DNA of 64,000 bases from a virus (lineage: Duplodnaviria > Heunggongvirae > Uroviricota > Caudoviricetes), in IMG/VR virus record IMGVR_UViG_3300038393_001148; one strand, 5' to 3'. The notes beneath the pieces are model-generated. The model made no database searches. It saw only the letters and a program-made list of their open reading frames with translations, and was not told the origin of the DNA. Positions 1-63,980 of the stretch are shown in pieces. Position numbers and translations under genes: made by a program. Positions within the stretch are counted from its first letter, which is position 1, and the number at the start of each line of letters is the position of its first letter.

Positions 1-193
1 AATAATTTGGCCCGACCGAATAGCCTAGCTCCTCGCAGGCTGCAAGCGTGGTCGCTACGATCTCGTGCTGATGAACCCCATAGCCGGGGCAGAGCGGATC
101 GAAGAGGAGCCGCCATTGTTCGTCCTCCCCCCAGAGCAGCCAGGCGTTGGTATGCCTAGCATCGCTGCCTGTGGTGACGTAGTAGTAGTTCAT
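1..193 (-). CDS. Partial small protein whose C-terminus runs off the window. The N-terminus carries the Trp-rich module (WLLWGEDEQWRLLF) seen in the zinc-ribbon family.
   Basis: Minus-strand ATG at 193 overlaps the stop of gene 190..474 (ATGA). The translation MNYYYVTTGSDARHTNAWLLWGEDEQWRLLFDP resembles the N-termini of 190..474 and 1213..1515. The track ORF 65..451(+) on the opposite strand is judged spurious. Confidence 0.45.
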   Translation of the reverse strand, partial: MNYYYVTTGSDARHTNAWLLWGEDEQWRLLFDPLCPGYGVHQHEIVATTLAACEELGYSVGPNY

Positions 194-474
194 GGCTTGC
201 ACTCCGGGCAGAGGTATTCCGCATCCCAGGCTTGGAACGTGGCCTCGCAGCTTCCGCAAAAACGGTCCGGGATCTTGGGCTCGATGGTCCGCCAATCGGT
301 GTCCCGATACTTGCTCGGGGGATCGGCATTAAGCTGGAGATTCCCATTGCTGTGCCGGACGTTCCATAATTCTTGCTGCTCGTCCCAGAACAGCGTCCAC
401 GATTTGTCTAGACACTCGCAGAGACGCGGACGCTTGTCCTCGTCATCGTAGATCCACTCGGGAAGCTCCCCCAT
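190..474 (-). CDS. Zinc-ribbon family paralog (W-rich N-terminal module plus C-terminal CGSC-x11-EYLCPECK)
   Basis: Track ORF of 94 aa with WDEQQELW and a C-terminal four-Cys ribbon. It is paralogous to its neighbours. Confidence 0.6.
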   Translation of the reverse strand: MGELPEWIYDDEDKRPRLCECLDKSWTLFWDEQQELWNVRHSNGNLQLNADPPSKYRDTDWRTIEPKIPDRFCGSCEATFQAWDAEYLCPECKP

Positions 475-515
475 AGCCCTAGCAGATTACCAGGAACAAT
501 ATCTACTTACAAGTC

Positions 516-671
516 CTAGTTCAATCCCAACAGGAGGATGACGACACCGGTCGAGCAGATGACGCCTGCCACGAGAGATGAAGCATGCCCACCGCTACGG
601 AAGTAGTGGTGGAAGTTCAACGCGGCGAAGGCCGCATTTAGCATGATGAAGATGTTTGCGAGGAAGAACAT
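516..671 (-). CDS. 51-aa hydrophobic membrane peptide, missed by the 60-aa ORF cutoff
   Basis: Hand translation of the minus strand gives MFFLANIFIMLNAAFAALNFHHYFRSGGHASSLVAGVICSTGVVILLLGLN*, which contains two hydrophobic stretches. Confidence 0.35.
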   Translation of the reverse strand: MFFLANIFIMLNAAFAALNFHHYFRSGGHASSLVAGVICSTGVVILLLGLN

Positions 672-685
672 AGCCGCTAACTCTA

Positions 686-973
686 TCAGGAACAATAACT
701 ACAATCAAGTCGGCATGAATGACAGAGATAGTCCGCGTTGATGGCGTAGATGATGCCTTCGCAGTTGGCGCAGGCTCGATGAGGAATGACGCTGACGTTG
801 GCCTGCCACTGATCGTACTGGATCCCTACGCTAGTGCGGACGGTGTTGGGATCGTCGCGCTCATGCCACATGTGCCAGCCCTGCCAGGACTCGTCGTACC
901 AGATGACCAACCAGTAGTCCCTGATCCCAGATCGGACCTTGGCGCAGTAGGTCTGAGAACGGTCACGCTCCAT
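686..973 (-). CDS. Zinc-ribbon family paralog (WYDESWQGW ... CANCEGIIYAINADYLCHSCR)
   Basis: Track ORF 686..1075. An internal Met (MERDRSQ...) at 973 removes the overlap with the upstream gene and matches the length of the other paralogs. Confidence 0.55.
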   Translation of the reverse strand: MERDRSQTYCAKVRSGIRDYWLVIWYDESWQGWHMWHERDDPNTVRTSVGIQYDQWQANVSVIPHRACANCEGIIYAINADYLCHSCRLDCSYCS

Positions 974-1220
974 CTCTGCACCTCGGACAGAGATAGTCGA
1001 GGAAGCTTGGCCCGCCACACTCTGCGCACTGGAGCCAGAGCCAGTGGAGCGGGCTGAAGTTCGCGGCCTTAACATAGTCGTCAGCTAGCAGGCCGGGATG
1101 CCAATCGCGGTCCAGAGCGTGCCGCCCGGGACTTCTACACGAACTCCAGTGCCAACGCTCAGCTACCTTCCACATCATCACGAATTCGCTGCCGTAGTGA
1201 TAGAAGCGACAGTCATCCAT
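963..1220 (-). CDS. Zinc-ribbon family paralog (CAECGGPSFLDYLCPRCR)
   Basis: Track ORF of 85 aa. The C-terminal motif is nearly identical to those of 1213..1515 and 1525..1845. Confidence 0.6.
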   Translation of the reverse strand: MDDCRFYHYGSEFVMMWKVAERWHWSSCRSPGRHALDRDWHPGLLADDYVKAANFSPLHWLWLQCAECGGPSFLDYLCPRCRDGA

Positions 1221-1515
1221 GGCGGCAGCCCTTGCATAGATAATCCAGGAACGATGGCTCCTCGCACTCGGCGCAGACGGGCCATGATAATGGACAACCG
1301 CTGTCGATGATCTTCCAATCCTTCAGGAAGGAATCCAACTCTAACTCTCCCGAGGAGAAGGGCTCATCGGGAGCCAGCGAGCACGCCAGCCCCAGGCCCT
1401 CCTCGTCGTTATAGGCCCATAGCTCCTGGTCGTCATCCCACCAGATGAGATAGCAGCGCCCGATGCGCCGTTCTCGGACAACGCCTTCGAAGCTATGAGG
1501 GAGGAGCCAGCCCAT
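1213..1515 (-). CDS. Zinc-ribbon family paralog (YLIWWDDDQELW ... CAECEEPSFLDYLCKGCR)
   Basis: Track ORF of 100 aa. It has both the W-rich N-terminal module and the canonical ribbon. Confidence 0.65.
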   Translation of the reverse strand: MGWLLPHSFEGVVRERRIGRCYLIWWDDDQELWAYNDEEGLGLACSLAPDEPFSSGELELDSFLKDWKIIDSGCPLSWPVCAECEEPSFLDYLCKGCRHG

Positions 1516-1524
1516 CGCCCTACA

Positions 1525-1845
1525 TTAGCGGGCAGAATATTTCACGTCAAGCCTGCATCGTTGACAGAGATAGTCTAGGAACGATGGCTCAGCACATTCC
1601 GCGCAGCGCGGCCAGGGCACCGGACAACTGCGCTCTACCTCCACGAAGCCGCTCCTGCGCATCTCGGTGAGGTTGAGGCAGATATATTGGCCCCGGTCGG
1701 TCCGCAGGGTTTTGGAGTTGTCGTTCTCCATCACGTCCCTGACCCAGTGATAGCCGGAGATCTTCCGCTGCTTGGCGCTGAGCCGATGGCTCATCATGAG
1801 ATAAACATCGTCCCGAGGATGATAGAGCAGACGGCCGTCAGTCAT
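1525..1845 (-). CDS. Zinc-ribbon family paralog (CAECAEPSFLDYLCQRCR)
   Basis: Track ORF of 106 aa. The DNA of the C-terminal motif (gagccatcgttcctagactatctctg) is almost identical to that of 1213..1515. Confidence 0.65.
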   Translation of the reverse strand: MTDGRLLYHPRDDVYLMMSHRLSAKQRKISGYHWVRDVMENDNSKTLRTDRGQYICLNLTEMRRSGFVEVERSCPVPWPRCAECAEPSFLDYLCQRCRLDVKYSAR

Positions 1846-1963
1846 CCCGCCTCCGAATGCGCAGATAGAGGGCGCGCAGCAACCGGGCGCAGCCGTAGGC
1901 CAACGCCGCAGCGGCGCTCAGCACGAGGATCCCGATGGCCCAAAAGGCAAGGAAGTTGACCAT
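1838..1963 (-). CDS. 41-aa hydrophobic peptide (MVNFLAFWAIGILVLSAAAALAYGCARLLRALYLRIRRRDD), below the ORF cutoff
   Basis: Hand translation. Its TGA stop overlaps the ATG of gene 1525..1845 (ATGA coupling). It has a single TM-like helix followed by a basic tail. Confidence 0.3.
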   Translation of the reverse strand: MVNFLAFWAIGILVLSAAAALAYGCARLLRALYLRIRRRDD

Positions 1964-2011
1964 GGCCCCGAGCACATTAGCAGGGAGAATATGTTCTGGC
2001 AAGCCTACACA

Positions 2012-2149
2012 TCACAGAGACCTAGATCCGATGGCAAACCACAGGATGCCAAGGGCTACAGGGATGAATAGCCACGGCCAGGTGACGCAGGCCGCAATGA
2101 TGCAGAGGAGAATGATGATGAAGAGGGGTGTATCTTCGGTTGGCCACAT
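2012..2149 (-). CDS. Small two-TM membrane protein (MWPTEDTPLFIIILLCIIAACVTWPWLFIPVALGILWFAIGSRSL)
   Basis: Track ORF 2012..2242. Its first 31 codons are a translation of the tandem 12-bp DNA repeats, so the internal Met at 2149 is preferred as the start. Confidence 0.35.
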   Translation of the reverse strand: MWPTEDTPLFIIILLCIIAACVTWPWLFIPVALGILWFAIGSRSL

Positions 2150-2171
2150 GGTCTCAGAGTACCACACGGTT

Positions 2172-2228
2172 GCCTTGTAGCCTTGTAGAGTCCCTTCAGA
2201 GACCCTTGTAGAGACCCTTGTAGAGTAC
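2172..2228. repeat. Five tandem copies of a 9–13 bp unit CCTTGTAGAG(A/T)(C/A)C at the edge of the divergent control region
   Basis: Read directly: gccttgtag / ccttgtagagtc / ccttcagagac / ccttgtagagac / ccttgtagagtac. Confidence 0.6.
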
Positions 2229-2708
2229 CAGACCACCCTCAAAAGCGCTCACCTTATGCGCGCGTATAGGCATAGCACTCGACCCAAGGCATAGGCTATG
2301 CCTCGTCTCAATGCTATTAACAACCTGCAATACATTATTGCACTTGGCTTAGTAGAGCCAAATCAAACGACATTCTCCCAGGGCCAGGTAAGGATTTAAT
2401 AGTAACCTAGCCTGATCATATAGGCCATTAGCATCCCATACCACAAGAGGATGGCCTACACCTCGGTCATACACATACATCAAGCCCCATGTCCTATGCG
2501 TTGACTCGACATAAGGCCTATGACAAGAAGCGGAGGGCCCGAGAAAGGAGGCTCATTTGTTGCGGTAGGGTGATAGCCCTTCCGGCAGCGGTTTGTAATT
2601 TTCAACTTTCTTGCTATGGGTCCTTGCATTGGGTAACAGACCGGGATTGAGATTCCCTACACTTTAGGAGTCCCTATGGGAACCCGAGAGGACGGGTCCT
2701 CTGCGGTA

Positions 2709-2736
2709 TTGACAGAGAATATTGCGTCTGTATCAC
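2709..2736 (+). promoter_or_regulatory. Candidate sigma70-like promoter TTGACA-N16-TATCAC
   Basis: TTGACAgagaatattgcgtctgTATCAC. It shares the TTGACAGA(G/T)A -35 context with the promoters at 2768, 3997, 6239 and 6714. Confidence 0.35.
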
Positions 2737-2767
2737 ATCCCGTGCAGGGTCCCATATCTGATGGAAC

Positions 2768-2796
2768 TTGACAGATAAGGTCCCTTCGGGTATCAT
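2768..2796 (+). promoter_or_regulatory. Candidate promoter TTGACA-N17-TATCAT. The ATG of gene 2803 lies 6 nt downstream of the -10, which implies a leaderless mRNA.
   Basis: TTGACAgataaggtcccttcgggTATCATaggcatATG. Confidence 0.45.
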
Positions 2797-2802
2797 AGGC
2801 AT

Positions 2803-2988
2803 ATGCGCGTTCGTATCAGCTACACAGTAGACGTGGATGATCAATTCCGACGCGAAATCAATCGCTGGTATGGCCGCCCTGGGCTCGCCAGCCGCGAGGA
2901 GGTCAAGCGCTGGTTTGAGCGGAACGGCTCCTCAATGAACGATGATCTATCCCTTCAGGCCGACGCCGACGAACGCGACGAAGAATGA
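2803..2988 (+). CDS. Hypothetical 61-aa acidic protein, first gene of the rightward early block
   Basis: Track ORF. It sits immediately after the leaderless promoter, and its stop overlaps the next start. Confidence 0.4.
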   Translation: MRVRISYTVDVDDQFRREINRWYGRPGLASREEVKRWFERNGSSMNDDLSLQADADERDEE

Positions 2989-3239
2989 CTACCCCATATC
3001 GTATCGCCTGTCGTCATGGGCATGAGGCCTCCGTTCATCGAAACGGTCTATGCGTTCACTGCCTTATTGAGGGGAAGAACGAGCGAGCGTTTTATCTCTA
3101 CGAGGACGGACGACGACGGCAGATTTTTACTAATCATGGGGAAATGATTCCCCTTCCCGTCTTTACTCGTTGCGCCGAATGCAATGAGTTCGTTGACGAG
3201 GAGGGGGATTATCTCTGCCCCGGATGCCGTTATGGATAA
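2985..3239 (+). CDS. Double zinc-binding protein (CRHGHE...CVHC plus CAECNEFVDEEGDYLCPGCR). Paralog of 4956..5216.
   Basis: Track ORF of 84 aa. It aligns along its full length with 4956..5216. Confidence 0.65.
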   Translation: MTTPYRIACRHGHEASVHRNGLCVHCLIEGKNERAFYLYEDGRRRQIFTNHGEMIPLPVFTRCAECNEFVDEEGDYLCPGCRYG

Positions 3240-3549
3240 CGCCTGGCTCCTCATCCTTCGAGGAGAGGAAGAGAATTACCACCGTTGGATCTGCGTCTGG
3301 TACGAGAACGACATGTTCTGGGATAGCTACATGAATCCCAAGGCGGACACCATTCAATCCTTTCCCGAGGGCACAAGCGGCTATGAGTCCCTGCCAGAAT
3401 ATGACTCCAGCTTCAAGGTGATTCCCAACGCCTCTCCTCTCCCCGTGGGCGTCTGCGGGGGATGCGAAAGCCCCGCCCTCTTGGGCGACTATCTGTGTAA
3501 GAAATGTAGAGCGTCTAATGACGAGGACTCTGCTAGGCTGACGCCATGA
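3232..3549 (+). CDS. Zinc-ribbon family paralog (WICVWYENDMFWDSY ... CGGCESPALLGDYLCKKCR)
   Basis: Track ORF 3184..3549. The internal Met at 3232 gives the W-rich N-terminus and removes most of the overlap. Confidence 0.6.
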   Translation: MDNAWLLILRGEEENYHRWICVWYENDMFWDSYMNPKADTIQSFPEGTSGYESLPEYDSSFKVIPNASPLPVGVCGGCESPALLGDYLCKKCRASNDEDSARLTP

Positions 3550-3830
3550 TCCGGGTACGAATCGTGGGCTTGGCGGCAGGCGGCAAGACGCCCTTCGACG
3601 GGAAGTTCCTCAAGGAGTACGACCCGGGACGCGACGGCGTGGATCCCGATGGGAGCCCCATGCTCGCGCATATCGTCTGCACCGACGATCCCGAGCAGGC
3701 GCTCGTACTCGAAGATCTCGCGGCGCTGCACGAACTGTGGACGCGCGTAGACCCGCGCCGTCCCACTCGGCCGGACGGCAAGCCCAACATGCCGCTGACG
3801 GCGTTCACGGTCGCAACGGAGCAGGCGTGA
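3546..3830 (+). CDS. Hypothetical 94-aa protein
   Basis: Track ORF, start/stop coupled to 3549. Confidence 0.4.
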   Translation: MIRVRIVGLAAGGKTPFDGKFLKEYDPGRDGVDPDGSPMLAHIVCTDDPEQALVLEDLAALHELWTRVDPRRPTRPDGKPNMPLTAFTVATEQA

Positions 3831-3996
3831 CCTGGAAGATCGATGGGCTGGACGAGGGAGAGTTTCTAACCCTCTGGCAGCTTCGCTATCTGCGGGCGGA
3901 CGGGACGCCCTGGCCGGGGATCCATCTGGCGCGGCTGATGACGGCCATCACGATCCTGCGCGGCGCTCATCCCGAGCGGCTTGTTCCTTACCATCC

Positions 3997-4025
3997 TTGA
4001 CAGAGAATTTTCATCTCAGTAAGGT
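3997..4025 (+). promoter_or_regulatory. Candidate promoter TTGACA-N17-TAAGGT. The ATG of gene 4032 lies 7 nt downstream (leaderless).
   Basis: TTGACAgagaattttcatctcagTAAGGTgagtccATG. The same -10 hexamer TAAGGT occurs at 6737. Confidence 0.45.
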
Positions 4026-4031
4026 GAGTCC

Positions 4032-4301
4032 ATGACTGATCGAGCGAAAGAGCGCGACGGGGTTTACTGCGGTAGTCCCGGAGCGATCCGCGCGGCAGCA
4101 ACGGCGTATCCCGGCGCAGATTCGGCAAAGCTTGCCGACGCACTAATCGCGTCTCACCATCCCGTCCTTGGGCTGGATCGGTCGGTGTGTCTCCGTGACA
4201 TCATCGAAGCGTTAGACAAGGAAGCTGGCATGGGCTTCGGCGACCCGGATGACCCGTTCTGGTATGTGGCGAGGTTCCTGGAGCGCAAGTTCAATGGCTG
4301 A
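4032..4301 (+). CDS. Hypothetical 89-aa protein
   Basis: Track ORF directly downstream of the leaderless promoter. Confidence 0.45.
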   Translation: MTDRAKERDGVYCGSPGAIRAAATAYPGADSAKLADALIASHHPVLGLDRSVCLRDIIEALDKEAGMGFGDPDDPFWYVARFLERKFNG

Positions 4302-4611
4302 GACGCCGATGTTCGATGGAACGCCATATGCCGGGTCCCTCTGGCGGGACTATAACGATCATATCTTCCGCCTAGACAGGATCACCGAAGATTTGTCTCG
4401 GCGAGCCTCCGACGAAAAATTCGGCCTGGAGCCTTTGCTGACCCTCCACGGGACGATGATGTATTGCCCCGACTGGTGCCAGGATCCCCGGCATGCCGAT
4501 GGGCAGCCCTACGAGACCTGGGCGCTGCCCAAGGATCTGCCGAGCGGCGAGATCTTCGGCTGGTCCCTCATGTGGATGAACAATGGACCGTCGAGCCATG
4601 ACTCGGATTAG
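4294..4611 (+). CDS. Hypothetical 105-aa protein
   Basis: Track ORF 4249..4611. The internal Met (MAETPMF) overlaps the upstream stop (ATGGCTGA). Confidence 0.45.
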   Translation: MAETPMFDGTPYAGSLWRDYNDHIFRLDRITEDLSRRASDEKFGLEPLLTLHGTMMYCPDWCQDPRHADGQPYETWALPKDLPSGEIFGWSLMWMNNGPSSHDSD

Positions 4612-4623
4612 CGAGCTAGGACA

Positions 4624-4962
4624 TTGATGGACGATCATCCCAACAACAACGTCAGAGGTGGCCTGGGCATCCTCAAGGATGCGCAAGATCAACGCTGGCA
4701 GCATATAGGAATGCGGGTCCTCGGACCCGCCGAGCGTCTTGACATCTTCTGCCTGTTGGATAATGACGATGGCTGTCAGACCAAGTTCGTCCAACCACAC
4801 GATCCCTGGCTGGACAGCCTAGTGGCTTTTGTTCCGTCCATGCGCGACATGAGTTGTTGCGATAGGTGCGGTGGATGGTGGAATAAGAGAATGTTTGACT
4901 GGCTGAATGCCCCGGATTATATGTGCCCATTTTGTCGTTACGACCTTGACGACCAATGGTAG
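4624..4962 (+). CDS. Zinc-ribbon family variant (CCDRCGGWW...DYMCPFCRYD)
   Basis: Track ORF of 112 aa with the family signature at its C-terminus. Confidence 0.55.
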   Translation: MMDDHPNNNVRGGLGILKDAQDQRWQHIGMRVLGPAERLDIFCLLDNDDGCQTKFVQPHDPWLDSLVAFVPSMRDMSCCDRCGGWWNKRMFDWLNAPDYMCPFCRYDLDDQW

Positions 4963-5216
4963 GCATCCGGGGAAAAGACTACATAATCTCGTGCCGCCAT
5001 GGGCACGAGGATACTCTCCATCAAGCCGGAGATTGCAGAGAATGTCTTAAGCGTGGCCGCAAGGAATCCGCTTTCCGCCTCTGGAAAGACGGAACGATAG
5101 AGACTTACTATGATCAGCCATTGCCTCCCATGTGCCGCTGCGCAGAGTGCGACAAGTTCATCGCGGCCAGCGATGATTATCTCTGCGAAGACTGTAGAGT
5201 CCAGGTGGATAGATGA
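4956..5216 (+). CDS. Double zinc-binding protein (CRHGHE...CRECL plus CAECDKFIAASDDYLCEDCR). Paralog of 2985..3239.
   Basis: Track ORF of 86 aa. Confidence 0.65.
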   Translation: MVGIRGKDYIISCRHGHEDTLHQAGDCRECLKRGRKESAFRLWKDGTIETYYDQPLPPMCRCAECDKFIAASDDYLCEDCRVQVDR

Positions 5217-5419
5217 ATATCTGTTCCCTCTGCCATAACGAAGTGATTATCAGGACGCTTCCGGCGAGCGGGGTCATGATCGAGGAATGCCGGACGTGCA
5301 AGACGGCAACGAACTGGCATACGCATACAAAAATGAACTGCACGCGCCTCTGTCATTGCGGCAAGGGCATTTGGCAAGACGACTATCTATGCTGCTGGTG
5401 TCGGAGCGAACATGACTAA
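5213..5419 (+). CDS. Double zinc-ribbon protein (CSLCHNE...CRTCK ... CHCGKGIWQDDYLCCWCR). Upstream partner of cassette copy 1.
   Basis: Track ORF of 68 aa. Confidence 0.55.
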   Translation: MNICSLCHNEVIIRTLPASGVMIEECRTCKTATNWHTHTKMNCTRLCHCGKGIWQDDYLCCWCRSEHD

Positions 5420-5705
5420 CGAAGAATTCATCGCGGCGGCTGAGTACTACAGGTGCCCGTTCTTCGCCAAGAGCGACCCGTGGGCAGCGACCTGGCTCGT
5501 GCGCTGGAACGGAACAGAATGGGAAGAATCCCGCTCTGATAAAGATGGCCTGCTTAAGGACGAGTTCTCCCCAATGGGCGGCATCAGCCACTTCACACTC
5601 CGATGCTGGGAGTTAGCGTGGAAAGATAGATTCCTGTTCTACAACCAGCCCGCTAGGCCTATTGCCGAGGACCTTTATGAGCACATGAGATCGGTGGACC
5701 CTTGA
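5412..5705 (+). CDS. 'MTNEEFIA...RPARPIAEDLYEHMR' family protein, copy 1
   Basis: Track ORF of 97 aa. It shares its N-terminus and C-terminal motif with 5953..6243 and its C-terminal motif with 7588..7890. Confidence 0.6.
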   Translation: MTNEEFIAAAEYYRCPFFAKSDPWAATWLVRWNGTEWEESRSDKDGLLKDEFSPMGGISHFTLRCWELAWKDRFLFYNQPARPIAEDLYEHMRSVDP

Positions 5706-5953
5706 TGGACATTGATCCGGGCCGCTGGTGCGGCGAATGCCGAATTCTGGCCTGCACACCGGGAGATTATCTCTGCAAGCACTGTCGGCTGGACGATGGC
5801 GCACCCATCGTCCAGTGGTGGATGAATGGGGCGATGAAGGGCGTCTACGCGGAGGTATATTTTCTCTCGAATTACGAGGGTAAGAATTATGTCTGCGAGA
5901 CGAAGCCTCCGCATAGGGTGTACGCTGTCGGGCCTACGGGGATCAAACGCTGA
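5702..5953 (+). CDS. Protein with the zinc ribbon at its N-terminus (CGECRILACTPGDYLCKHCR)
   Basis: Track ORF of 83 aa. Confidence 0.55.
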   Translation: MMDIDPGRWCGECRILACTPGDYLCKHCRLDDGAPIVQWWMNGAMKGVYAEVYFLSNYEGKNYVCETKPPHRVYAVGPTGIKR

Positions 5954-6243
5954 TGACTAACGAAGAATTTATCGCTGATGCCAAGTTTTACAAACGCTCG
6001 TTTTACGCTAAGAGCCACAGGCGAAGTGGAACCTGGCTTCTCCAGTGGAAGGAGGGCGAAGGTTGGCAAGAACGCGAAATAAGACGGGACGAGTGGGTAT
6101 CGGCCACGACCATTAACCACTTTTTCACCACTCCGGACAATGATTGGAAACTATCCTGGGCCGACGATACTCTGATCTATGATCGACCTGCCAGGCCCAC
6201 GGCTGAAGACTGGTATGAACACATGAGACTAAGGGACCCTTGA
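5953..6243 (+). CDS. 'MTNEEFIA...RPARPTAEDWYEHMR' family protein, copy 2
   Basis: Track ORF of 96 aa. It is a tandem paralog of 5412..5705. Confidence 0.6.
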   Translation: MTNEEFIADAKFYKRSFYAKSHRRSGTWLLQWKEGEGWQEREIRRDEWVSATTINHFFTTPDNDWKLSWADDTLIYDRPARPTAEDWYEHMRLRDP

Positions 6244-6267
6244 CAGGGGCCCTTGCGCAAAATATTC
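6239..6267 (+). promoter_or_regulatory. Candidate promoter TTGACA-N17-TATTCT
   Basis: TTGACAggggcccttgcgcaaaaTATTCT. It overlaps the stop of 5953..6243, and gene 6289 begins 21 nt downstream. Confidence 0.35.
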
Positions 6268-6288
6268 TGATCCGGTAGGATCCGCCGC

Positions 6289-6492
6289 ATGGCTACTTAC
6301 AAGAAGGTCATCAACCTCCAGCCCGGCGACCAGATCATCCGGGACCCGAGCATCCGCTTTCCGGATCTCCGGTTCTTGGGAACGGTGGAGCAGGTCATCG
6401 CCCTCGGCGATGACGCGGACACGTTCGAGATCAAGCTCCAGCCTTCCGGATCCTTCAAGCGCCCGGCCAAGCATCTCCTGGAGGTGCAGTAG
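6289..6492 (+). CDS. Hypothetical 67-aa protein
   Basis: Track ORF. Confidence 0.4.
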   Translation: MATYKKVINLQPGDQIIRDPSIRFPDLRFLGTVEQVIALGDDADTFEIKLQPSGSFKRPAKHLLEVQ

Positions 6493-6711
6493 ATGGCCCG
6501 CACCAGGGACGAGTGGGTGCAGGCCATGGGCGAGGACGTGAAGCTGATCAACTACTACCTGCGTCTACGCCGCGAGGATGAGGAGCCCACCGCGCTCTCC
6601 TTCGCCATGGCCCTCAAGGAGGCCCGGCGACTTCAGTCCGATATCTATCGCTATGCCCACGATATCTACGGGATTAGCAAGGAAGACATCGACGCGGAGC
6701 GCCCGCTATGA
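6493..6711 (+). CDS. Hypothetical 72-aa protein
   Basis: Track ORF directly abutting the gene at 6492. Confidence 0.4.
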   Translation: MARTRDEWVQAMGEDVKLINYYLRLRREDEEPTALSFAMALKEARRLQSDIYRYAHDIYGISKEDIDAERPL

Positions 6712-6713
6712 AG

Positions 6714-6742
6714 TTGACACACCTCACTTAGCCTGGTAAGGT
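6714..6742 (+). promoter_or_regulatory. Candidate promoter TTGACA-N17-TAAGGT. The ATG of gene 6750 lies 7 nt downstream (leaderless).
   Basis: TTGACAcacctcacttagcctggTAAGGTagaagtcATG. This is the same geometry as at 3997. Confidence 0.45.
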
Positions 6743-6749
6743 AGAAGTC

Positions 6750-7073
6750 ATGGATCTACAGAATCTACGGCTTGCTTACACCAAGGGGCAGCGAGCCGCG
6801 TTGAAGCTCCTACTGGAGGATCCGCGCCTGCCCGAGGACGCCAAGGAATTGGTGCTCGAACATCATGGCTACACCGAGGCCATGATCGCGGAGATGGAGG
6901 CTCCTCAATATTCTTCTGAGGAACTTGAGGCCATCGCCCATGTGGAAGAGCGCATCAGGGAGGACGGCGCTCATAGCGTCTCCGGATGCCCGCGCTATTG
7001 CCGCGCCATGTGCCAATATCGGAAGACGATTAAGGAGCTTGAAGCGAAGGGCTGGAAGCCTACAAGTCAATGA
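6750..7073 (+). CDS. Hypothetical 107-aa protein
   Basis: Track ORF downstream of the leaderless promoter. Confidence 0.45.
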   Translation: MDLQNLRLAYTKGQRAALKLLLEDPRLPEDAKELVLEHHGYTEAMIAEMEAPQYSSEELEAIAHVEERIREDGAHSVSGCPRYCRAMCQYRKTIKELEAKGWKPTSQ

Positions 7074-7315
7074 CCTTCCGACACAAAGATAACAAAGAGT
7101 CCCGATGGGAATGGCTGCCCGAGATCTCGGCGCTGAAGGTTGTTGATGGGCCACGAGCGGGCGAAATTATCGGCAACGGTCAATACACGCAGAAATATAT
7201 CTCACAGTACATCGAGTCCGGCGTCTGGATCGAAGTGTATCAATTCCGTTGCGCTAACTGCGATGCAGGAGTGGGAGAACTCGACTATCTATGTCGGAAG
7301 TGCCGAGATGTCTAG
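7070..7315 (+). CDS. Zinc-ribbon family paralog (CANCDAGVGELDYLCRKCRDV)
   Basis: Track ORF of 81 aa. Confidence 0.6.
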   Translation: MTFRHKDNKESRWEWLPEISALKVVDGPRAGEIIGNGQYTQKYISQYIESGVWIEVYQFRCANCDAGVGELDYLCRKCRDV

Positions 7316-7333
7316 AGGCGAATATACAGGACA

Positions 7334-7591
7334 ATGGGGATCATGATGTACTGCCCACTCTGCGGAGTCGCAAGTAGGGATGGTATCGGACGCCCCTGGT
7401 GCCAACGACACGCTCTACACGGATATAAGCAGCCCAAGCTCTATAACCCTGATACGGGAGAAGCATGGTTCCCGTGCGCAGAGTGCGGTAAGACACGAGA
7501 GATCATCCTTGGCGGGGCCGTCCACGCCATCTCCAAGGTTCCCGATGATGATTATCTATGCGTCACTTGTCGTAGGAAATTCGATTCATGA
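7334..7591 (+). CDS. Double zinc-ribbon protein (CPLCG...CQRH ... CAECGK...DDDYLCVTCRR). Upstream partner of cassette copy 3.
   Basis: Track ORF of 85 aa. Confidence 0.6.
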   Translation: MGIMMYCPLCGVASRDGIGRPWCQRHALHGYKQPKLYNPDTGEAWFPCAECGKTREIILGGAVHAISKVPDDDYLCVTCRRKFDS

Positions 7592-7890
7592 ATAAGTCTC
7601 AACTCCTTGGATACACCTTCTTCACAGGTGACTCAAAACGATATATCATCCTTGAATGCAGCCCTCCCCATCCTGGCATGATAGAGGTGTACGGATGTCT
7701 TCCAGGGACGCTTCAACCAAATTTGCACGGCGATCATTCTCCCTGGGAAATCGACACATTGGTTAATTGCTTTAAACAATACCCCTGGACGATGGATGTC
7801 TTTGGATTTGGACTTGAGTATATTTATCCCCTCCGTCCTACCGCAGAGCAATTTTACGAAATGCTGAGAAGATCCGATGCTCTCGCATGA
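7588..7890 (+). CDS. '...RPTAEQFYEMLR' family protein, copy 3. Its C-terminal motif is shared with 5412..5705 and 5953..6243.
   Basis: Track ORF of 100 aa. Confidence 0.55.
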   Translation: MNKSQLLGYTFFTGDSKRYIILECSPPHPGMIEVYGCLPGTLQPNLHGDHSPWEIDTLVNCFKQYPWTMDVFGFGLEYIYPLRPTAEQFYEMLRRSDALA

Positions 7891-7970
7891 AGAGACATAG
7901 GATTGCCGCCCAGGGAGATTATTTGTGCGGAACCTGCCGCGTGCTTGACGAGAATATTTCGCCCTGGTAA
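7887..7970 (+). CDS. 27-aa micro-ORF carrying the family signature (MKRHRIAAQGDYLCGTCRVLDENISPW). It is either a degenerate relic or a functional mini-copy.
   Basis: Hand translation. Its ATG overlaps the stop of 7588..7890 (ATGA). Confidence 0.3.
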   Translation: MKRHRIAAQGDYLCGTCRVLDENISPW

Positions 7971-7980
7971 CCTTGGCGCA

Positions 7981-8340
7981 ATGCCCTACGTTTCTTACGC
8001 CAAGATGGTCTCGCCTGGTCGGACTAGCGTCTATCATATCGCAGAACGTTATGTCGGTCGGACTCGCTGGTCCCCGTGCTGCGGGGCTCATAACTACGGA
8101 CAAAGAATCTCTCTTCGAGACCTTACTGAGTCGGATGCCTCTCTCAGGGAGTGCAAGCAATGCGCTCAGATCATCTTAAAGCGTCGATCAGCTATTGACA
8201 AGCTTATAGGTCCAACGGGAACCTCAAAGCTGGTCCTTATGGATCTTGAAAGGGCCGTGGACGAATACGACATGGCAGATACCGTCTTCGGCCACGTCGT
8301 CAAGGACATTGTGTTGAAGCACTATCATCAGGAGGAATAG
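7981..8340 (+). CDS. Hypothetical Cys-rich protein (CCGAHNYG...CKQCAQ)
   Basis: Track ORF 7903..8340. An internal Met is preferred because the 5' part overlaps the micro-ORF in another frame. Confidence 0.35.
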   Translation: MPYVSYAKMVSPGRTSVYHIAERYVGRTRWSPCCGAHNYGQRISLRDLTESDASLRECKQCAQIILKRRSAIDKLIGPTGTSKLVLMDLERAVDEYDMADTVFGHVVKDIVLKHYHQEE

Positions 8341-16718: not shown

Positions 16719-17030
16719 ATGGCTTACTTTGGAACGACAAGCGCGCTAGGTTCAAACGGGACCGTTACTATTGGACCGCGCCCTACCGACCGTGCCGATT
16801 ATCTATCGGGCATGGTCTTTGCCGATCAGGCTGGCACGATCTTTATCGAGCAGTCTGGGGACGGCCAGAACTGGGACCTCTCTACCTCTCACCCGGTGGT
16901 TGCTAACACCGGCCAAGGCTTTACCGAGCCTCTATATGGGCCGTACGTTCGCGTCCGCTATGTGAACGGTCCTACGGCTCAGGGAGCGCTACGGATCTTC
17001 GCCCGTTACACCTCGGCTGGAGACTCTTAA
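16719..17030 (+). CDS. Hypothetical 103-aa protein
   Basis: Track ORF. Confidence 0.45.
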   Translation: MAYFGTTSALGSNGTVTIGPRPTDRADYLSGMVFADQAGTIFIEQSGDGQNWDLSTSHPVVANTGQGFTEPLYGPYVRVRYVNGPTAQGALRIFARYTSAGDS

Positions 17031-20000
17031 TGCAGTGCGCCGATTGCGGCCATATTTGGACAGGTCCGGGATATGATCAAGAAATTCACTCAAGTTGTCC
17101 TCAATGCGGGTCATACCGCACTCAAGTCTCTCCGACGCATTCGGAAATAGAGATGAGGAACATGCCCGCGCCGGGAGAAGAGGATATGGGCGGGAACCCT
17201 TTGAAGGAGGGGATCCTTGCCGATGGCGGTTGGCAGAACCGCATGAAGCGAGATGAGTCATTCGCCAGCCTCAAGAAGAAGGCAATGGATGATTTTGATT
17301 GGGACGACGATGACGATATGGGTAATGCAGAGAACCCGTATCAACCCTATGAGACGCAAGAGCCTTATATTCACTCTCGTTTCATCGTCACCCCTAACGG
17401 TCAACTCCTGACTCCCAGCGAGCAACTTATGGCTGAAAAAGGTCCTGATCGAGTTTTCCATGAGGACATCGCCAACGAGCATGGGATCCCCAACTTCACC
17501 CAGGGCCACTCGCTCGGAACAGCCCTCAGCGATGGGACCGTTCACTTCGACGCGGGCAACGCATCGGGGCTCGACCCACAGACCTTGGCCTCGCTTGTGC
17601 ATCAACATTTTCCGAACCACCACCTCGATCCAAACAGCATCGCCGCTGCGCCCGCCAGCCAAGAAGAGCGCTTTGGTCTAGATAGACTCCCTTATACACC
17701 CCAAGAGCGTAATCAGTTGAACTTCGGAGACAAGCAGCGTCAGGAGCAACAGGCCGTTGACCAGCGGGGCGGCCGTCCCTTCAACTACTATGACAATCCT
17801 TACTTTAATCGTGGTGGATCTACTCGCGACCGCATGTATCTTCCTTGGTCGCTCGATACTGCAAAGATTGCAGCAGACTTCGATGTTGAACAAGTAATCC
17901 CGGCTGGTCCTCATACCGAGGAAGTAGATGTAGGAGAAGCCAACCCGCTGATCCTCCAGCACGACGATCCTAACGTGGTCGGGGACGCCAAGACCCGTCT
18001 GGAATCGGCGACCAAGACCTCATTCCTTCCGATGCTTCTCGGCCTCGCCGGTGGGGCACTAGGGGCGGAAGCGCTCGGGGGAGCGGCGGCGGGTCGCATC
18101 GGAGGGTCCTTGGCCGGTCACCTCGTGGGACGAGCCCTAGAAGGCGGTCCGGGCGGCGGAAACGCGGCCCTCAATGGCCCTTCGGAGGTCCAGCAGTCGT
18201 GGGACACGCTGTCATCTATCAAAGAGGCAGACTGGGCGCGTGACACTGGCAACTGGCTTAAGGACAACGTAACCACCCCGGCGCATAATACAATCTATAA
18301 GCTCATGGGAAGCCCCTTCGATGGCGGTTCGACGTTTGATCGAAACTACGAACGATACCTACGTCAGGGTATTCCGCCCTCCGAGGCGCGAGATCGTGCC
18401 GCGTTGGATGCTGGCACGATCACGCCAGAGCAATTCCAGCAGCGACAGCAATATCATCAGGAGCGACAGCTAAATAGTATTCCGACAGCCGACATGACTT
18501 GGGATGATCCACGCAACGCCGCCTTCTCCATCCATGAGCGCCTAGCGTATGATCACCCGTCTTCAAATCCCGGATACGACGACACGGACGATCCGGGGGA
18601 CGTGGACCAGCATGAGCATAACGATGGCGATCACACCAACTTCGATGACGACATCGACAGCGCTGGTGGATCCGATGGCTTCGATGTAAATTCTGAGCTT
18701 GGACAGGCGTTTGTCAACGCTCTTCCTTCGCTCATGAAGTACTATGACTCGCCGGAGTCTGGTAAGGACGATCCTGCTATCGCCAGCCTAGTCGAGGCGA
18801 TGGAGCGCGAGATGCCAGGGATGATCGGCGCGCAACCTTCTGATGATGATCTTAGGATGATCGATGAGGTTAAGGGTGGACATCAGGACGATAGCCAAAT
18901 TCCTCCGGGACATACGGCGGCAGGCGTTCCCGGAATCGGAATGGCTCCGGGCACCCAAACCTTAGCTCCGGTCGGACCTAACAATTCGATCAACCCGATG
19001 TCCCAGGGCTCATGCCCTCATTGCGGAGCTATGGTCACCCCTGGTCAGGGGGTATGCCCGCAATGCAACTCAGCCGTGAGTCCGATGCAGCAGGGCGCTA
19101 CGGCAGTTAATCCACAAGCTCCTGTAGGTCCCGCAGGGCAGGCTATGCAACCGGTTATGGCGGCTAACCAGGGTCCTCACAACCCTGAGCAGTTCCAGGC
19201 CGTCATGCAGTATCTCCAGCAGGAAGGTCGGGACGAACTTATTCCCGACCTTATTGAACATCCTGAAAACTATGGGGATATTCTAGCGGAGATTCAGGGT
19301 AAGAGCCAGCCGCCAAATCCCGATCCAGATCCGGGTCCAGCACCGCCTATGGATCCATCGATGATGATGCAGCAGGGGATGCCTTCGGGAGGAGGAGGTA
19401 TGCCTCCCCAGGGTATGCCGATGCAGGGCCGCGCAGGAGGAATCGGTTCACGTATGGAGATCGATCTTCCGTGCCCGCACTGCCATAAGACCGGAGGAGT
19501 CGGTTATTACCCATCGAGCCAAGATTGTCAGTGCCGAAATTGCGGTTACGAATTCCCCGCAGGTAATGACCAAGGGCGAGAGCAGCAAATGGATGTAGAA
19601 GATTACCGAAGCCCGGAAGGACTCGAACCCGCACCGGCAGGGCTCGGACCCATCCACCAAGGAGCGGCAGATCCGGTCACTCCTCCATGCCCGAAGTGTG
19701 GCTCTCACACCACCGGTATCATCACCGACTCCGGTCAGGCTCAGTGCTCCAACTGCAATCACAAGTGGCAGACCAACGTTGAGGTCCAGGGAGAGAAGAC
19801 TCCCGTGCAGCCGAAGGCCAGCGCAGAGAATCCTTGGGTCACTCAGGACGGCCAGCCGCTTGTTGTAGGACAAGAGTATGAGATGTACTCGTCCAAGTAT
19901 GATGTTCCGGACGTTGTGAAGATTACTGCGGTCAAGCCCAACTCGATTGAGTACACGTTGACCGGAGCCTATGGCCTAGAGCACCGGACAGCGGTGACTC

Positions 20001-20740
20001 GTGAAGAGGCGCAGTTGGATGGACTCAGCTTTGTTTCCTCCGATGGCGCGGACGATATGGCTCCGGATACAAACCTCAATGAGCAGCAGCCCAACGATCA
20101 GATGCAGGTTCCGGCCGAGACCCATCAGGCTAACAGCGAGTCCGATGTTTGGTTACTGGTTTATCACTATGGGCTGGACGAGCGAACCGCCCGCGAGGTA
20201 TTAGCTGACCCCAAGACTCAGGGAATCGTCCAGCAGTGGAAGCAGGGTATCCCCGACGTTCAGACAGAACCGGGGCGCTCGATGCTCGATGAGTCGCCCT
20301 GGGATTTCCAAAACCGGAGGATGAAGGCCGCCCAGGCTCCGGGAAACGAAATAGACCCACAGGTTCTTCCTCATTTTCAGCAGGCATTCCAGCATGCTCG
20401 GCAAAATGGCGTAGATCAGGCTCACCAATTCCTACTTCAGAACCTACAACGGTACGATCCTCGACGGGCTACGAGCCTGGCTGATGACTGGCGAGCAAAG
20501 TATGACCGTCTCTTCGGCAACGGCGGGCCTATGGGCGAGCCTAATTTCGCTCCCAACGACGTTGGACCAAACGTACTTAAAATGGCGGGCAAGAAGTTCA
20601 CCCCGATGGAGCAGCGCGAATTCATCGATGAGCCGGGCAAGGCCCGCAATGCAGAGAAGCTAGACCTAGAAGGCACCCACTACACAGAAAGCCGCACCCA
20701 TAGCCTCCTAGATGATTCGTATTTCCTCTTTGGTCTATAA
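17030..20740 (+). CDS. Giant 1236-aa protein with four C-x2-C...C-x2-C zinc ribbons, acidic and P/Q-rich linkers and a glycine-zipper hydrophobic segment. Function unknown; it could be an internal virion or ejection protein.
   Basis: Ribbons read in the translation are CADC...CPQCGS, CPHCGAMV...CPQCNS, CPHCHKTGG...CRNCGY and CPKCGSH...CSNCNH. The glycine zipper is LLGLAGGALGAEALGGAAAGRIGGSLAG. Confidence 0.6.
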   Translation: MQCADCGHIWTGPGYDQEIHSSCPQCGSYRTQVSPTHSEIEMRNMPAPGEEDMGGNPLKEGILADGGWQNRMKRDESFASLKKKAMDDFDWDDDDDMGNAENPYQPYETQEPYIHSRFIVTPNGQLLTPSEQLMAEKGPDRVFHEDIANEHGIPNFTQGHSLGTALSDGTVHFDAGNASGLDPQTLASLVHQHFPNHHLDPNSIAAAPASQEERFGLDRLPYTPQERNQLNFGDKQRQEQQAVDQRGGRPFNYYDNPYFNRGGSTRDRMYLPWSLDTAKIAADFDVEQVIPAGPHTEEVDVGEANPLILQHDDPNVVGDAKTRLESATKTSFLPMLLGLAGGALGAEALGGAAAGRIGGSLAGHLVGRALEGGPGGGNAALNGPSEVQQSWDTLSSIKEADWARDTGNWLKDNVTTPAHNTIYKLMGSPFDGGSTFDRNYERYLRQGIPPSEARDRAALDAGTITPEQFQQRQQYHQERQLNSIPTADMTWDDPRNAAFSIHERLAYDHPSSNPGYDDTDDPGDVDQHEHNDGDHTNFDDDIDSAGGSDGFDVNSELGQAFVNALPSLMKYYDSPESGKDDPAIASLVEAMEREMPGMIGAQPSDDDLRMIDEVKGGHQDDSQIPPGHTAAGVPGIGMAPGTQTLAPVGPNNSINPMSQGSCPHCGAMVTPGQGVCPQCNSAVSPMQQGATAVNPQAPVGPAGQAMQPVMAANQGPHNPEQFQAVMQYLQQEGRDELIPDLIEHPENYGDILAEIQGKSQPPNPDPDPGPAPPMDPSMMMQQGMPSGGGGMPPQGMPMQGRAGGIGSRMEIDLPCPHCHKTGGVGYYPSSQDCQCRNCGYEFPAGNDQGREQQMDVEDYRSPEGLEPAPAGLGPIHQGAADPVTPPCPKCGSHTTGIITDSGQAQCSNCNHKWQTNVEVQGEKTPVQPKASAENPWVTQDGQPLVVGQEYEMYSSKYDVPDVVKITAVKPNSIEYTLTGAYGLEHRTAVTREEAQLDGLSFVSSDGADDMAPDTNLNEQQPNDQMQVPAETHQANSESDVWLLVYHYGLDERTAREVLADPKTQGIVQQWKQGIPDVQTEPGRSMLDESPWDFQNRRMKAAQAPGNEIDPQVLPHFQQAFQHARQNGVDQAHQFLLQNLQRYDPRRATSLADDWRAKYDRLFGNGGPMGEPNFAPNDVGPNVLKMAGKKFTPMEQREFIDEPGKARNAEKLDLEGTHYTESRTHSLLDDSYFLFGL

Positions 20741-21834: not shown

Positions 21835-22170
21835 TTATACTGATTCTGATATGCTAGCCCGACATTTCGGACACAAGTAATCTGAGGAGTCGGGGTTTTC
21901 GGCTTCGCAGTTGCCACAGACTCTCCGGGAAAGTAGGATCCATACCCCATCGGCGGATCTTTGGGGCCACCACCTCACTTTCCACCTAATAGGTGATTCG
22001 TGAAACGGCGACGACGACGACTCGATGCGGTCAGCGTGCCAATATTCAAAGCCCCCCTCGGTGCGCTCGCGGCTTTTGAATTCCCATAGTGCCCACTGCA
22101 CATCGGAATTCTCGTACCTCCAGACCTGACCTGGCTTAGGACTCTCGACAGACTCGGCAGAGGTAGTCAT
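21835..22170 (-). CDS. Zinc-ribbon family paralog (CGNCEAENPDSSDYLCPKCRAS)
   Basis: Track ORF of 111 aa. Confidence 0.6.
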   Translation of the reverse strand: MTTSAESVESPKPGQVWRYENSDVQWALWEFKSRERTEGGFEYWHADRIESSSSPFHESPIRWKVRWWPQRSADGVWILLSRRVCGNCEAENPDSSDYLCPKCRASISESV

Positions 22171-39906: not shown

Positions 39907-41409
39907 ATGGCCTCTGCTTACACACCCCCTGGCGTTTACGTCCAAGAGTTATTTTCGCCATCCGTCAATACCATCCTAGCTACTTCAGCCCAGGTCTGCC
40001 TTGTGGGCTTGGCGCAGGGGTATCAGCTAAAGACGGCGCAGCTTACCTTCCCGGCCTCGGGGACGGCCCAAACGATCTCGGCTCCAGCCGGATCCATCTT
40101 CCAAAAGGTTGACACCAACACCTCGTTCGAGAAGGTCCGAGATCTCGTTGACCCGACTGCGGGCACCAACGGTGTCTATGCTGAAGGCGCTGATTTCACC
40201 GCAACGCTATCCAGCGACAAGCTGACCTTTACAATCACGCCGGTCAATGGATCGGGCCTAAAGACCAACGGCGGCGTCCTCGCATTTACCTTCCGCCACG
40301 TTCCCGAGAAGTACTTTGTTGCTACCCGGCTCGACACCCTTGCGGCAGTCGAGGATCGCTACGGCGCAGCCTTCGACACCAGCGGAATCCTGACCCCGCT
40401 CACCGCTGCGGCTACCATCGCCTTTGAAAACGGCGCGCAGAACGTCGTGGTCCAGCCGCTCTTCGAGGTAGACACCGATGCCAATGGCAACGTCACCCGT
40501 CGTCAGCCTGATTCCGGCGACGTTAACGCTTTTGCGACCTTCCAGACCACGCTAGTCGGGCTTCGAGACATCGAAGACATCAACGTGGTCGTCCCGATTT
40601 TCCCATCGGGATTGAACGCTGCCGCTCAACTTCAGCTTATTGAAGCTGCACAGGATCACGTCCGCTATCAGGCGGCCCAGGGACAACTACTTGTCGTCAT
40701 TGCTGGAGAGGATAGTGTGCTCCAGTCAGAGCTACAGGGTCATGCGGCGGCTCTCCGCACTCGTGGAGACACCGAGGCCGAGGCAACTGTGCTGGTATCC
40801 CCCGCACGATTTGGCCGGACCCTTCCTTCTACCGGGGCCAGCATCGTGGTTGGTGGTCAGTATGCCGCAGCAGCTATTGCGGGAATGCTTGCTGCCCGCC
40901 CGGTCTCTACCCCGCTCACCCGCAAGCAGCTATCGGGCTTCCAGACCGTTGAGGATCCCCGCGACAAGGCAGCGAAGGACGCTGACGCTGCCGCAGGTCT
41001 CATGGTTGTTGAGCAGAAGGGCGCTGTCCTCCAGGTCCGCCATGCGCTGACGGTGGATAACACGGCAACAGCACGTCGTGAACTCTCAGTGGTGAGATCC
41101 AAGCACCGGATGATCGACTCGATCCGAAACACGATTGATACGCAGATCATCGGCAACGTGCCTGCGGACGGCAATGCCCCGTTCACCGTGAAGAACGCGG
41201 TGATCGGAGTCCTTGAGGCGCTGCGCTCACGTCGAGACCTTGTGGACTACAAGGGGGTCCAGGCTCGCGTTCTCGCGTCCGATCCGACCACCGTTGAGGT
41301 TCGATTCTCTTACCTCCCAGCGTTCCCACTCAACTACGTCACGATTATCTTCTCGCTGGACTTGACGGATAACACACTAACTACTACAACAACTACGGCT
41401 GCCGTCTAG
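39907..41409 (+). CDS. Tail sheath protein
   Basis: The N-terminus MASAYTPPGVYVQE matches the hallmark (Y.TPGVY.EE) of contractile sheath proteins. At 500 aa it has the right size, and it is followed by a tube-sized gene. Confidence 0.7.
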   Translation: MASAYTPPGVYVQELFSPSVNTILATSAQVCLVGLAQGYQLKTAQLTFPASGTAQTISAPAGSIFQKVDTNTSFEKVRDLVDPTAGTNGVYAEGADFTATLSSDKLTFTITPVNGSGLKTNGGVLAFTFRHVPEKYFVATRLDTLAAVEDRYGAAFDTSGILTPLTAAATIAFENGAQNVVVQPLFEVDTDANGNVTRRQPDSGDVNAFATFQTTLVGLRDIEDINVVVPIFPSGLNAAAQLQLIEAAQDHVRYQAAQGQLLVVIAGEDSVLQSELQGHAAALRTRGDTEAEATVLVSPARFGRTLPSTGASIVVGGQYAAAAIAGMLAARPVSTPLTRKQLSGFQTVEDPRDKAAKDADAAAGLMVVEQKGAVLQVRHALTVDNTATARRELSVVRSKHRMIDSIRNTIDTQIIGNVPADGNAPFTVKNAVIGVLEALRSRRDLVDYKGVQARVLASDPTTVEVRFSYLPAFPLNYVTIIFSLDLTDNTLTTTTTTAAV

Positions 41410-63656: not shown

Positions 63657-63980
63657 TCAAATTTGGGAATGTCTACACCTTACGCAGATATAGTCGCTAT
63701 TCGCCATGACGGCAACCTGCTCGCATTCGGGGCACTCTTGAATCTGCGCCCACTCCATTTGCAGTGGGAACTCACTAGGATCCTCGTTGTTCCACGCCGA
63801 GGCGCTCCGACAGTAGTTCTCTAACTCCAATTCGGCCCTGGATGGCGTGTACCACATCGTATCGCCACTTCCAGGATTATTTTTGAAGTAGTCATCGATA
63901 GTGATTGGCTGTCCCATAGTAGTGGGAAGCTCCTGCCATACACCGCCGAGGACTCGCTCATTTTTGATTGCTTGAGCCAT
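63657..63980 (-). CDS. Zinc-ribbon family paralog (CPECEQVAVMANSDYICVRCRHSQI)
   Basis: Track ORF of 107 aa with an AGGGAG Shine-Dalgarno sequence. Confidence 0.6.
   Translation of the reverse strand: MAQAIKNERVLGGVWQELPTTMGQPITIDDYFKNNPGSGDTMWYTPSRAELELENYCRSASAWNNEDPSEFPLQMEWAQIQECPECEQVAVMANSDYICVRCRHSQI

Follow-up and report, generated by a model that had tools for sequence, protein, structure and literature searches.

We analyzed a family of small proteins encoded by a 64,000-nucleotide stretch of DNA, hereafter called the window, which comes from a virus of the class Caudoviricetes (IMG/VR record IMGVR_UViG_3300038393_001148) and is part of a 165-kb Joint Genome Institute (JGI) metagenome contig (3300037420, Ga0395906_0000090). 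The source contig, designated L001, carries the left flank of the window. From five of these proteins, an earlier note had described a Trp-rich, acidic module upstream of a Cys4 zinc ribbon and had concluded to a two-domain architecture, with a variable 'head' and a zinc-ribbon 'anchor'. A second conserved element is indeed present upstream of the ribbon and is common to a subset of the ribbon proteins. However, it does not behave as a free-standing head: it is always found together with a linker block and the ribbon, in a unit of about 95 residues that is kept in other phages. It is very probable that this conserved strand-turn-strand with its fixed Trp, the linker strand and the Cys4 ribbon constitute one single recurrent unit. 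Neither the linker block, located between hairpin and ribbon, nor the recurrence of the whole unit in other uncultivated phages had been reported in the earlier note.

The first part of the unit would be a hairpin made of a hydrophobic strand ending with W, Y or F, an acidic or polar turn of 3-6 residues and a second strand starting with a nearly invariant Trp. The linker strand would follow, with the pattern (D/G)W-x-x-(I/L)-x-(N/P)-x-(S/C)-P-(L/I)-(P/W), and the protein would end with the Cys4 zinc ribbon, C-(A/G)-x-C-x6-9-(D/E)-Y-L-C-x-x-C-R, for which zinc binding is predicted.

These small proteins are rich in Trp (4.4% vs 1.3% in the large open reading frames (ORFs) of the same phage) and most copies are acidic, with an isoelectric point (pI) of 4.3-5.7 and a net charge of -3 to -12. 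Composition is therefore a serious null. One could indeed assume that the resemblance is compositional or convergent, as small Trp- and Asp/Glu-rich beta proteins often show an h-h-h-W stretch, an acidic turn and a W. All our shuffle controls preserved composition, using the same residues. With the five copies alone, the ribbon-stripped N-termini gave Smith-Waterman z values of 0.5-2.0 against shuffles for all pairs except one. Leave-one-out hidden Markov models (HMMs) gave p values from 0.005 to 0.31 with one match out of register, these models being trained on 4-5 local hairpins and having little power. Such values speak in favor of the compositional explanation, as do similar strings found in an unrelated-looking pair of genes devoid of ribbon (5490-5528 and 6031-6072). 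The sole clear pair among the five, 190-474 and 1213-1515, reached a z of 4.5 and a BLASTP E-value of 3e-4 over 58 aa. The strongest local links extended outside the five, 1213-1515 being related to L001 10551-10817 with a z of 6.9 and the gene 963-1220 to L001 11854-12138 with a z of 5.2. The five copies alone thus provide weak evidence, and it is the sequences of their relatives that make the similarity convincing.

Once stripped of their ribbon, 21 N-termini, 9 local and 12 from other metagenomes, still align. Consistent columns are present in this alignment, so that the similarity is not merely compositional. The first residue after the turn is a nearly invariant Trp (at least 90%), while the W/F column that closes the first strand and an acidic column in the turn each reach at least 70%. 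A second Trp block, (D/G)W-x-x-I-x-(N/P)-x-(S/C)-P-L-(P/W), lies immediately upstream of the ribbon. We also built a hairpin HMM from external proteins only, excluding the ribbon columns, and compared each local copy with 2000 composition-preserving shuffles. Seven of the nine local copies were matched in register, with p values of 0.0005-0.29. The gene cut by the left edge of the window (1-193) scored 11.8 (p 0.0005) and 686-973 was also matched in register; for 190-474 and 3232-3549, only strand 1 was aligned or the match was out of register. A scan was then made of 723 six-frame ORF segments from the window and its left flank (73,915 aa), 28 of which contain the ribbon. Ribbon-family genes with an in-register hairpin represented 7 of the 11 top distinct matches (hypergeometric P = 1.8e-8), the gene 1-193 being the first of all. 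These results, obtained against shuffles that kept composition, stand against a compositional origin, like the constant position of the motif in the protein and the alignment of the blocks that flank it over the 58 aa mentioned above. At the level of sequence comparison, the Trp/acidic motif is confirmed as real and beyond composition, and a compositional or convergent resemblance appears highly unlikely.

Structure prediction with AlphaFold2 yielded a strand, an acidic turn and a second strand for the motif. For 190-474, modelled from a 30-sequence alignment (model mb1434df11c06; mean predicted local distance difference test (pLDDT) 77.7, predicted template modelling score (pTM) 0.52), strands are found at residues 26-31 (WTLFWD) and 36-41 (LWNVRH), the turn EQQE separating them, then at residues 46-50 and 61-64 (WRTI, in the linker block), upstream of the ribbon. 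The mean pLDDT is 81-88 for residues 21-50 and about 90 for the ribbon. The same strands were obtained for 1213-1515, at residues 20-25 and 30-36, with a lower confidence (pTM 0.36). The Trp-rich motif is thus modelled as a beta-hairpin belonging to a short antiparallel beta-meander. The role of its Trp residues appears to be structural, as they may form an aromatic core or cross-strand pairs acting together with the putative zinc site, both being presumably needed for folding because the protein is too small for an ordinary hydrophobic core. The hairpin would then be a scaffold and not a swappable head. Whereas the head had been called variable, what is conserved in the N-terminus is the hairpin, and variation would rather concern the N-terminal tail, the turn and the loops leading from the hairpin to the linker.

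A two-domain organization nevertheless deserves consideration, in which shuffled aromatic/acidic heads would ensure recognition and the zinc ribbon would dock all these independent heads to one common partner. The ribbon can indeed be combined with other partners, and this part of the modularity proposed earlier holds: at least three other N-terminal types precede it, and it is also found in N-terminal position or doubled. For instance, 2985-3239 and 4956-5216 (plus strand; 53% identity over 38 aa, E 1e-13) define a subfamily with an N-terminal C-R-H-G-H-E...C-x-x-C, which may be a second metal site, as well as a hairpin of the YxYEDG type; an orthologue is present in another phage, in an unrelated metagenomic array (L010 1716-2003). 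SH3-like N-termini lie ahead of the ribbon in L001 11150-11470 and in the protein P0030, and several other unrelated N-termini occur in this phage. The protein encoded by 5702-5953 (plus strand) even shows the order opposite to that of its neighbours, with an N-terminal ribbon (WCGECRILACTPGDYLCKHCR) and then about 55 aa of unrelated sequence. On other metagenomic contigs (L011, L013, L017, L022), the ribbon is N-terminal, doubled in one protein or located behind long unrelated regions. The ribbon sequences are moreover far better conserved than the N-termini, and the distance from the second Trp of the hairpin to the first ribbon Cys varies from 36 to 48 residues. On the other hand, we found no case of the hairpin carried by or fused to another domain, and hairpin plus linker block without ribbon was never found in this phage or in the external relatives examined. 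The only look-alikes are the ribbon-less pair already mentioned, 5412-5705 and 5953-6243 (plus strand, 46% identity, E 8e-28, Trp 6-7%), which contain TWLVRWNGTEWEE and TWLLQWKEGEGWQE and a hairpin-like TWL(V/L)xW...W motif, and whose C-terminus is conserved (ARPxAEDxYEHMR). When compared with the N-terminal profile of the family using hhalign, this pair matched over only 14 columns with a probability of 2%, and a relationship is not demonstrable. Within the N-terminus, it is the hairpin that is conserved. Finally, the conserved segment that comes directly before the ribbon contains a Trp and is a strand in the model, an arrangement suggestive of a single continuous fold. Nothing in this analysis shows the hairpin moving as a separate module, and we consider two independent domains unlikely as compared with the single unit described above.

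The five peptide strings previously noticed were found again at their places, WLLWGEDEQWRLLF at 101-142, WTLFWDEQQELWNV at 358-399, WLVIWYDESWQGWHMW at 866-913 and YLIWWDDDQELWAY at 1411-1452, all on the minus strand, and WICVWYENDMFWDSY at 3286-3330 on the plus strand. Gene calls made independently on the source contig agree with the limits 190-474, 686-973, 1213-1515 and 3232-3549, and each of the five genes has a Cys4 ribbon at its end. Copy A (1-193, minus strand) is cut by the window edge; the full gene (L001 10282-10554) encodes 90 aa ending with CAECDEPAYYDYLCRRCRT, and its hairpin is AWLLWGEDEQWRLLF (101-145). Copy B (190-474, minus strand, 94 aa) displays the hairpin WTLFWDEQQELWNVRH (352-399), the linker block DWRTIEPKIP (268-297) and the ribbon CGSC...EYLCPECK (196-258). 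In copy C (686-973, minus strand, 95 aa), the corresponding elements are YWLVIWYDESWQGWHMW (866-916), QWQANVSVIP (782-811) and a ribbon at 710-772; in copy D (1213-1515, minus strand, 100 aa), they are CYLIWWDDDQELWAYN (1408-1455), DWKIIDSGCPLSW (1282-1320) and CAECEEPSFLDYLCKGCR (1222-1275). Copy E (3232-3549, plus strand, 105 aa), with WICVWYENDMFWDSY as hairpin, SFKVIPNASPLP (3409-3444) as linker block and a ribbon at 3454-3510, is on the opposite strand, across the divergent region of putative promoters described below. Among the five, it is the one that the HMM detects least well, with only strand 1 aligned. All five copies possess the linker block, that of copy A reading GYSVGPNYSPVP.

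The subset does exist, but five copies are too few, and we count about 12-14 clustered paralogs. The additional copies include 963-1220, 21835-22170 and, in L001, 10551-10817, 10819-11157, 11854-12138, 12138-12422 and 12419-12730. The first one (963-1220, minus strand, 85 aa) contains the hairpin FVMMWKVAERWHW (1146-1184), the linker block DYVKAANFSPLHW (1041-1079) and a ribbon at 975-1028. A more distant paralog of 111 aa (21835-22170, minus strand), matched by the family profile as P0002, has the hairpin-like VWRYENSDVQWALW (22084-22125) and the ribbon. In the paralog 1525-1845 (minus strand), the ribbon is accompanied by the linker block GFVEVERSCPVPW (1612-1650), but the N-terminal strand region is atypical and longer.

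The hairpin-bearing genes are contiguous (window 1-3549 and L001 10282-12730), which fits a subfamily born by local tandem duplication. More generally, this phage possesses at least 37 ribbon genes with the pattern CxxC...(D/E)YLCxxCR and many different N-terminal regions, distributed across about 85 kb: 19-20 in the window (190-22708 and 63657-63980), 9 in the left flank (L001 10282-13512) and 9 further ones beyond two large genes (L024 1-6634). For a phage, this amounts to an extreme expansion of paralogs. Most synonymous sites differ between neighbouring ribbons whose peptides are identical (EPSFLDYLC); the copies are therefore old and under purifying selection, and do not result from recent conversions.

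Word-indexed protein searches returned almost nothing but the proteins of the phage itself, and relatives were reached only by an exhaustive profile search among 1.84 billion representative proteins. This search gave 31 matches with E <= 1e-3, including about 20 external ones. The external proteins have a length of 93-113 aa and, in most cases, share the three-block layout. Examples are P0013 (...FAMFWYDDETELWRV...EWEILDNPTPLP...CAGCDGPVYFDYLCQECR, and also ...FAMFWYDDETELWRV...EWEILDNPTPLPPLPCAGCDGPVYFDYLCQECR), P0026 (...YWFIWWEDNHWLCF...), P0029 (...LWLLYWEGNRWRS...) and P0014 (...WLVYFEETAWRAY...EWTITDNSSPLP...). P0014 and P0022 are located in arrays similar to the present one, where stretches of 4-5 kb contain 7 and 8 ribbon genes, several of them of hairpin type. 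Conservation in a phage group thus concerns the array as well as the subfamily. At the nucleotide level, positions 1-8000 of the window (blastn) and the gene 1213-1515 (tblastn) had no match in 50,697 phage records. Neither the sheath protein of the phage, used as a query for related loci, nor the CAEC...DYLCxxCR DNA pattern retrieved anything from IMG/VR. The same pattern searched in GTDB genomes gave only an out-of-frame chance match in a metagenome-assembled genome of Acidobacteriaceae, which therefore provides no clue to the host. A literature search returned nothing relevant.

The contig codes for a contractile-tailed phage, with a tail sheath (39907-41409) about 30% identical to the sheaths of actinobacteriophage myoviruses, a baseplate J protein (51086-53182), an M23-peptidase tail protein and an SNF2 helicase. 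No tRNA gene was found. The left 7.6 kb of the window are dense with genes of 60-130 codons, many of which end with C-x-x-C...(D/E)-Y-L-C-x-x-C-R. These small genes form divergent arrays, leftward from about 2240 and rightward from about 2800. The region between them (2334-2796) contains sigma-70-like promoter matches, identified by consensus match only: one on the plus strand (2768-2796, TTGACA-17-TATCAT, 11 of 12 consensus bases) and one on the minus strand (2361-2334). Amid the leftward ribbon-gene array, three short, strongly hydrophobic ORFs of 51-76 aa (516-671, 1838-2002 and 2012-2242, minus strand) are likely to encode small membrane proteins. Farther on, 17030-20740 (plus strand) encodes a 1236-aa protein whose N-terminus is a different Cys4 ribbon (MQCADCGHIW...SSCPQCGSY), with a sub-threshold HypA match at residues 2-34 followed by an acidic stretch. 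Beyond the window, L001 13804-17016 (minus strand) encodes a 1070-aa protein with no recorded Pfam hit, which contains several internal repeats like (R/K)P(W/F)(I/L)YD(H/P)...IHVGP(L/Q)G..H as well as repeated D(E/D)DLW(K/H)(E/D)AS segments.

What could be the function of so many related proteins? The putative promoters and divergent arrays, the acidity of the proteins and the many paralogs maintained lead us to propose, in a tentative way, that these mostly acidic proteins are expressed early and serve, during takeover, as small zinc-stabilised binders directed at proteins of the host or of its defences. The family would have arisen via tandem duplication in a probable early-gene region, behind the sigma-70-like promoters, and many old, diverged paralogs would have been retained. 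The specificity of binding would lie in the variable turn, the loops and the N-terminal tail. A more ambitious version is that the 37 or more ribbon genes, about 12 of them built on the hairpin scaffold, would form a library of binders, each paralog neutralising a different host factor or defence system through its turn and loops. We consider such a library rather improbable; if true, it would represent a new natural miniprotein binder scaffold as well as a new class of multi-copy counter-defence genes. Another possibility is that the proteins are nucleic-acid-binding regulators, for example early modulators of transcription or translation, in which the zinc ribbon and exposed Trp residues would contact DNA or RNA. 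However, most hairpin copies are strongly acidic, with the pI range given above and a charge down to -12, and nucleic-acid binding is therefore disfavoured. No significant match to any DNA- or RNA-binding family was obtained either, and we give little credit to this possibility.

Considered jointly, the structure, the family and the function proposed here, that is, one recurrent unit used by early-expressed binders, form the best overall explanation, which we hold with moderate confidence. Several points weigh against it. The pairwise similarity among the five copies first described is weak, and the hairpin HMMs detect copies B and E poorly. The set of external proteins has some selection bias toward local-like N-termini, because the full-length profile used for their retrieval included local N-termini. 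The AlphaFold2 models are of medium confidence only (pTM 0.36 and 0.52). Lastly, the early expression of these proteins, their binding of zinc and the existence of binding partners are all putative.

By itself, the conserved N-terminal element is a modest piece of family anatomy. Its interest comes from the family, which is unannotated, unusual in its Trp content and present in extreme copy number in an uncultivated myovirus of about 165 kb, as well as in other uncultivated phages. If the paralogs are binders of host or defence proteins, the family would offer a natural scaffold of compact size, from which new functions in anti-defence or takeover could be drawn. If they are not, the signature would still be useful for the annotation of small-gene arrays in this phage group.

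Finally, we compared the family with known systems. No member reached the gathering threshold of any Pfam family, DZR, DZR_2 and Zn_Ribbon_1 included, the best scores being about 13-14.5 bits vs a 27-bit cut-off for DZR_2. The best Pfam matches are generic zinc-ribbon models, with an E-value of 0.03 at best across 30 members and weak DZR_2 matches at 0.03-0.1. None of 24 members matched a PHROG (HMM E <= 0.01). In the PDB, the best match by sequence was obtained with the last half of the TRIM25 RING, which aligns with the linker block and the ribbon (E 0.016), and the best Foldseek matches have E-values of 0.29 (BFVD) and 0.42 (PDB). Such Pfam, PDB and Foldseek matches describe a shape and not family membership. 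Judging from these searches, the family is unannotated, apparently without Pfam, PHROG or PDB relative, and its signature consists of the three blocks.

A RING finger was rejected: RING domains use eight ligands in a C3HC4 cross-brace, whereas the phage proteins have only four conserved Cys and lack the first C3H half, the TRIM25 match covering the last two ligand pairs only. Membership of DZR or of the USP fingers was also rejected, with no significant Pfam, PDB or fold match. The 'fingers' subdomain of USP deubiquitinases and SAD1 is an antiparallel beta-sheet with a Cys4 zinc ribbon at its tip. Among small beta-rich inhibitor and immunity proteins of phages and bacteria, we compared AcrIIA7 (8kbi), the anti-Thoeris protein Tad2 (9eib/8wje) and the Tas1 immunity protein (6ox6_B); no significant fold or sequence similarity was found with AcrIIA7 or Tad2. 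The hairpin was also compared with WW domains, which possess two Trp 20-22 residues apart, a conserved Pro and a three-stranded sheet. In the phage hairpin, a spacing of only 5-8 residues, across a single turn, separates the Trp. As there is no Pfam WW match for any member either, a WW domain was rejected.

Two resemblances can nevertheless be underlined. The first one concerns the ribbon: C-x2-C-x8-13-C-x2-C is invariant in all aligned members, which places a short beta-hairpin between two CxxC knuckles, as in the double zinc ribbons of DZR and DZR_2 (ComF-type N-terminus). The phage proteins differ from the latter by their single ribbon, and the Trp hairpin and the linker block have no counterpart there. 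The weak DZR_2 matches result from a similar second knuckle. Indeed, the ComF-like bacterial proteins L018 6682-6743 and L019 9249-9310, found by DNA pattern, contain a double zinc ribbon whose second knuckle, ADYFCARCR (CAECMAKPEAMSADYFCARCR), shares (D/x)(Y/F)(L/F)C-x-x-CR with the phage ribbons. The second resemblance concerns the hairpin. WW domains and tryptophan-zipper hairpins are beta structures of very small size that owe their stability to Trp residues located on neighbouring strands, and the predicted hairpin of the phage proteins is likewise a small beta structure with Trp on adjacent strands.

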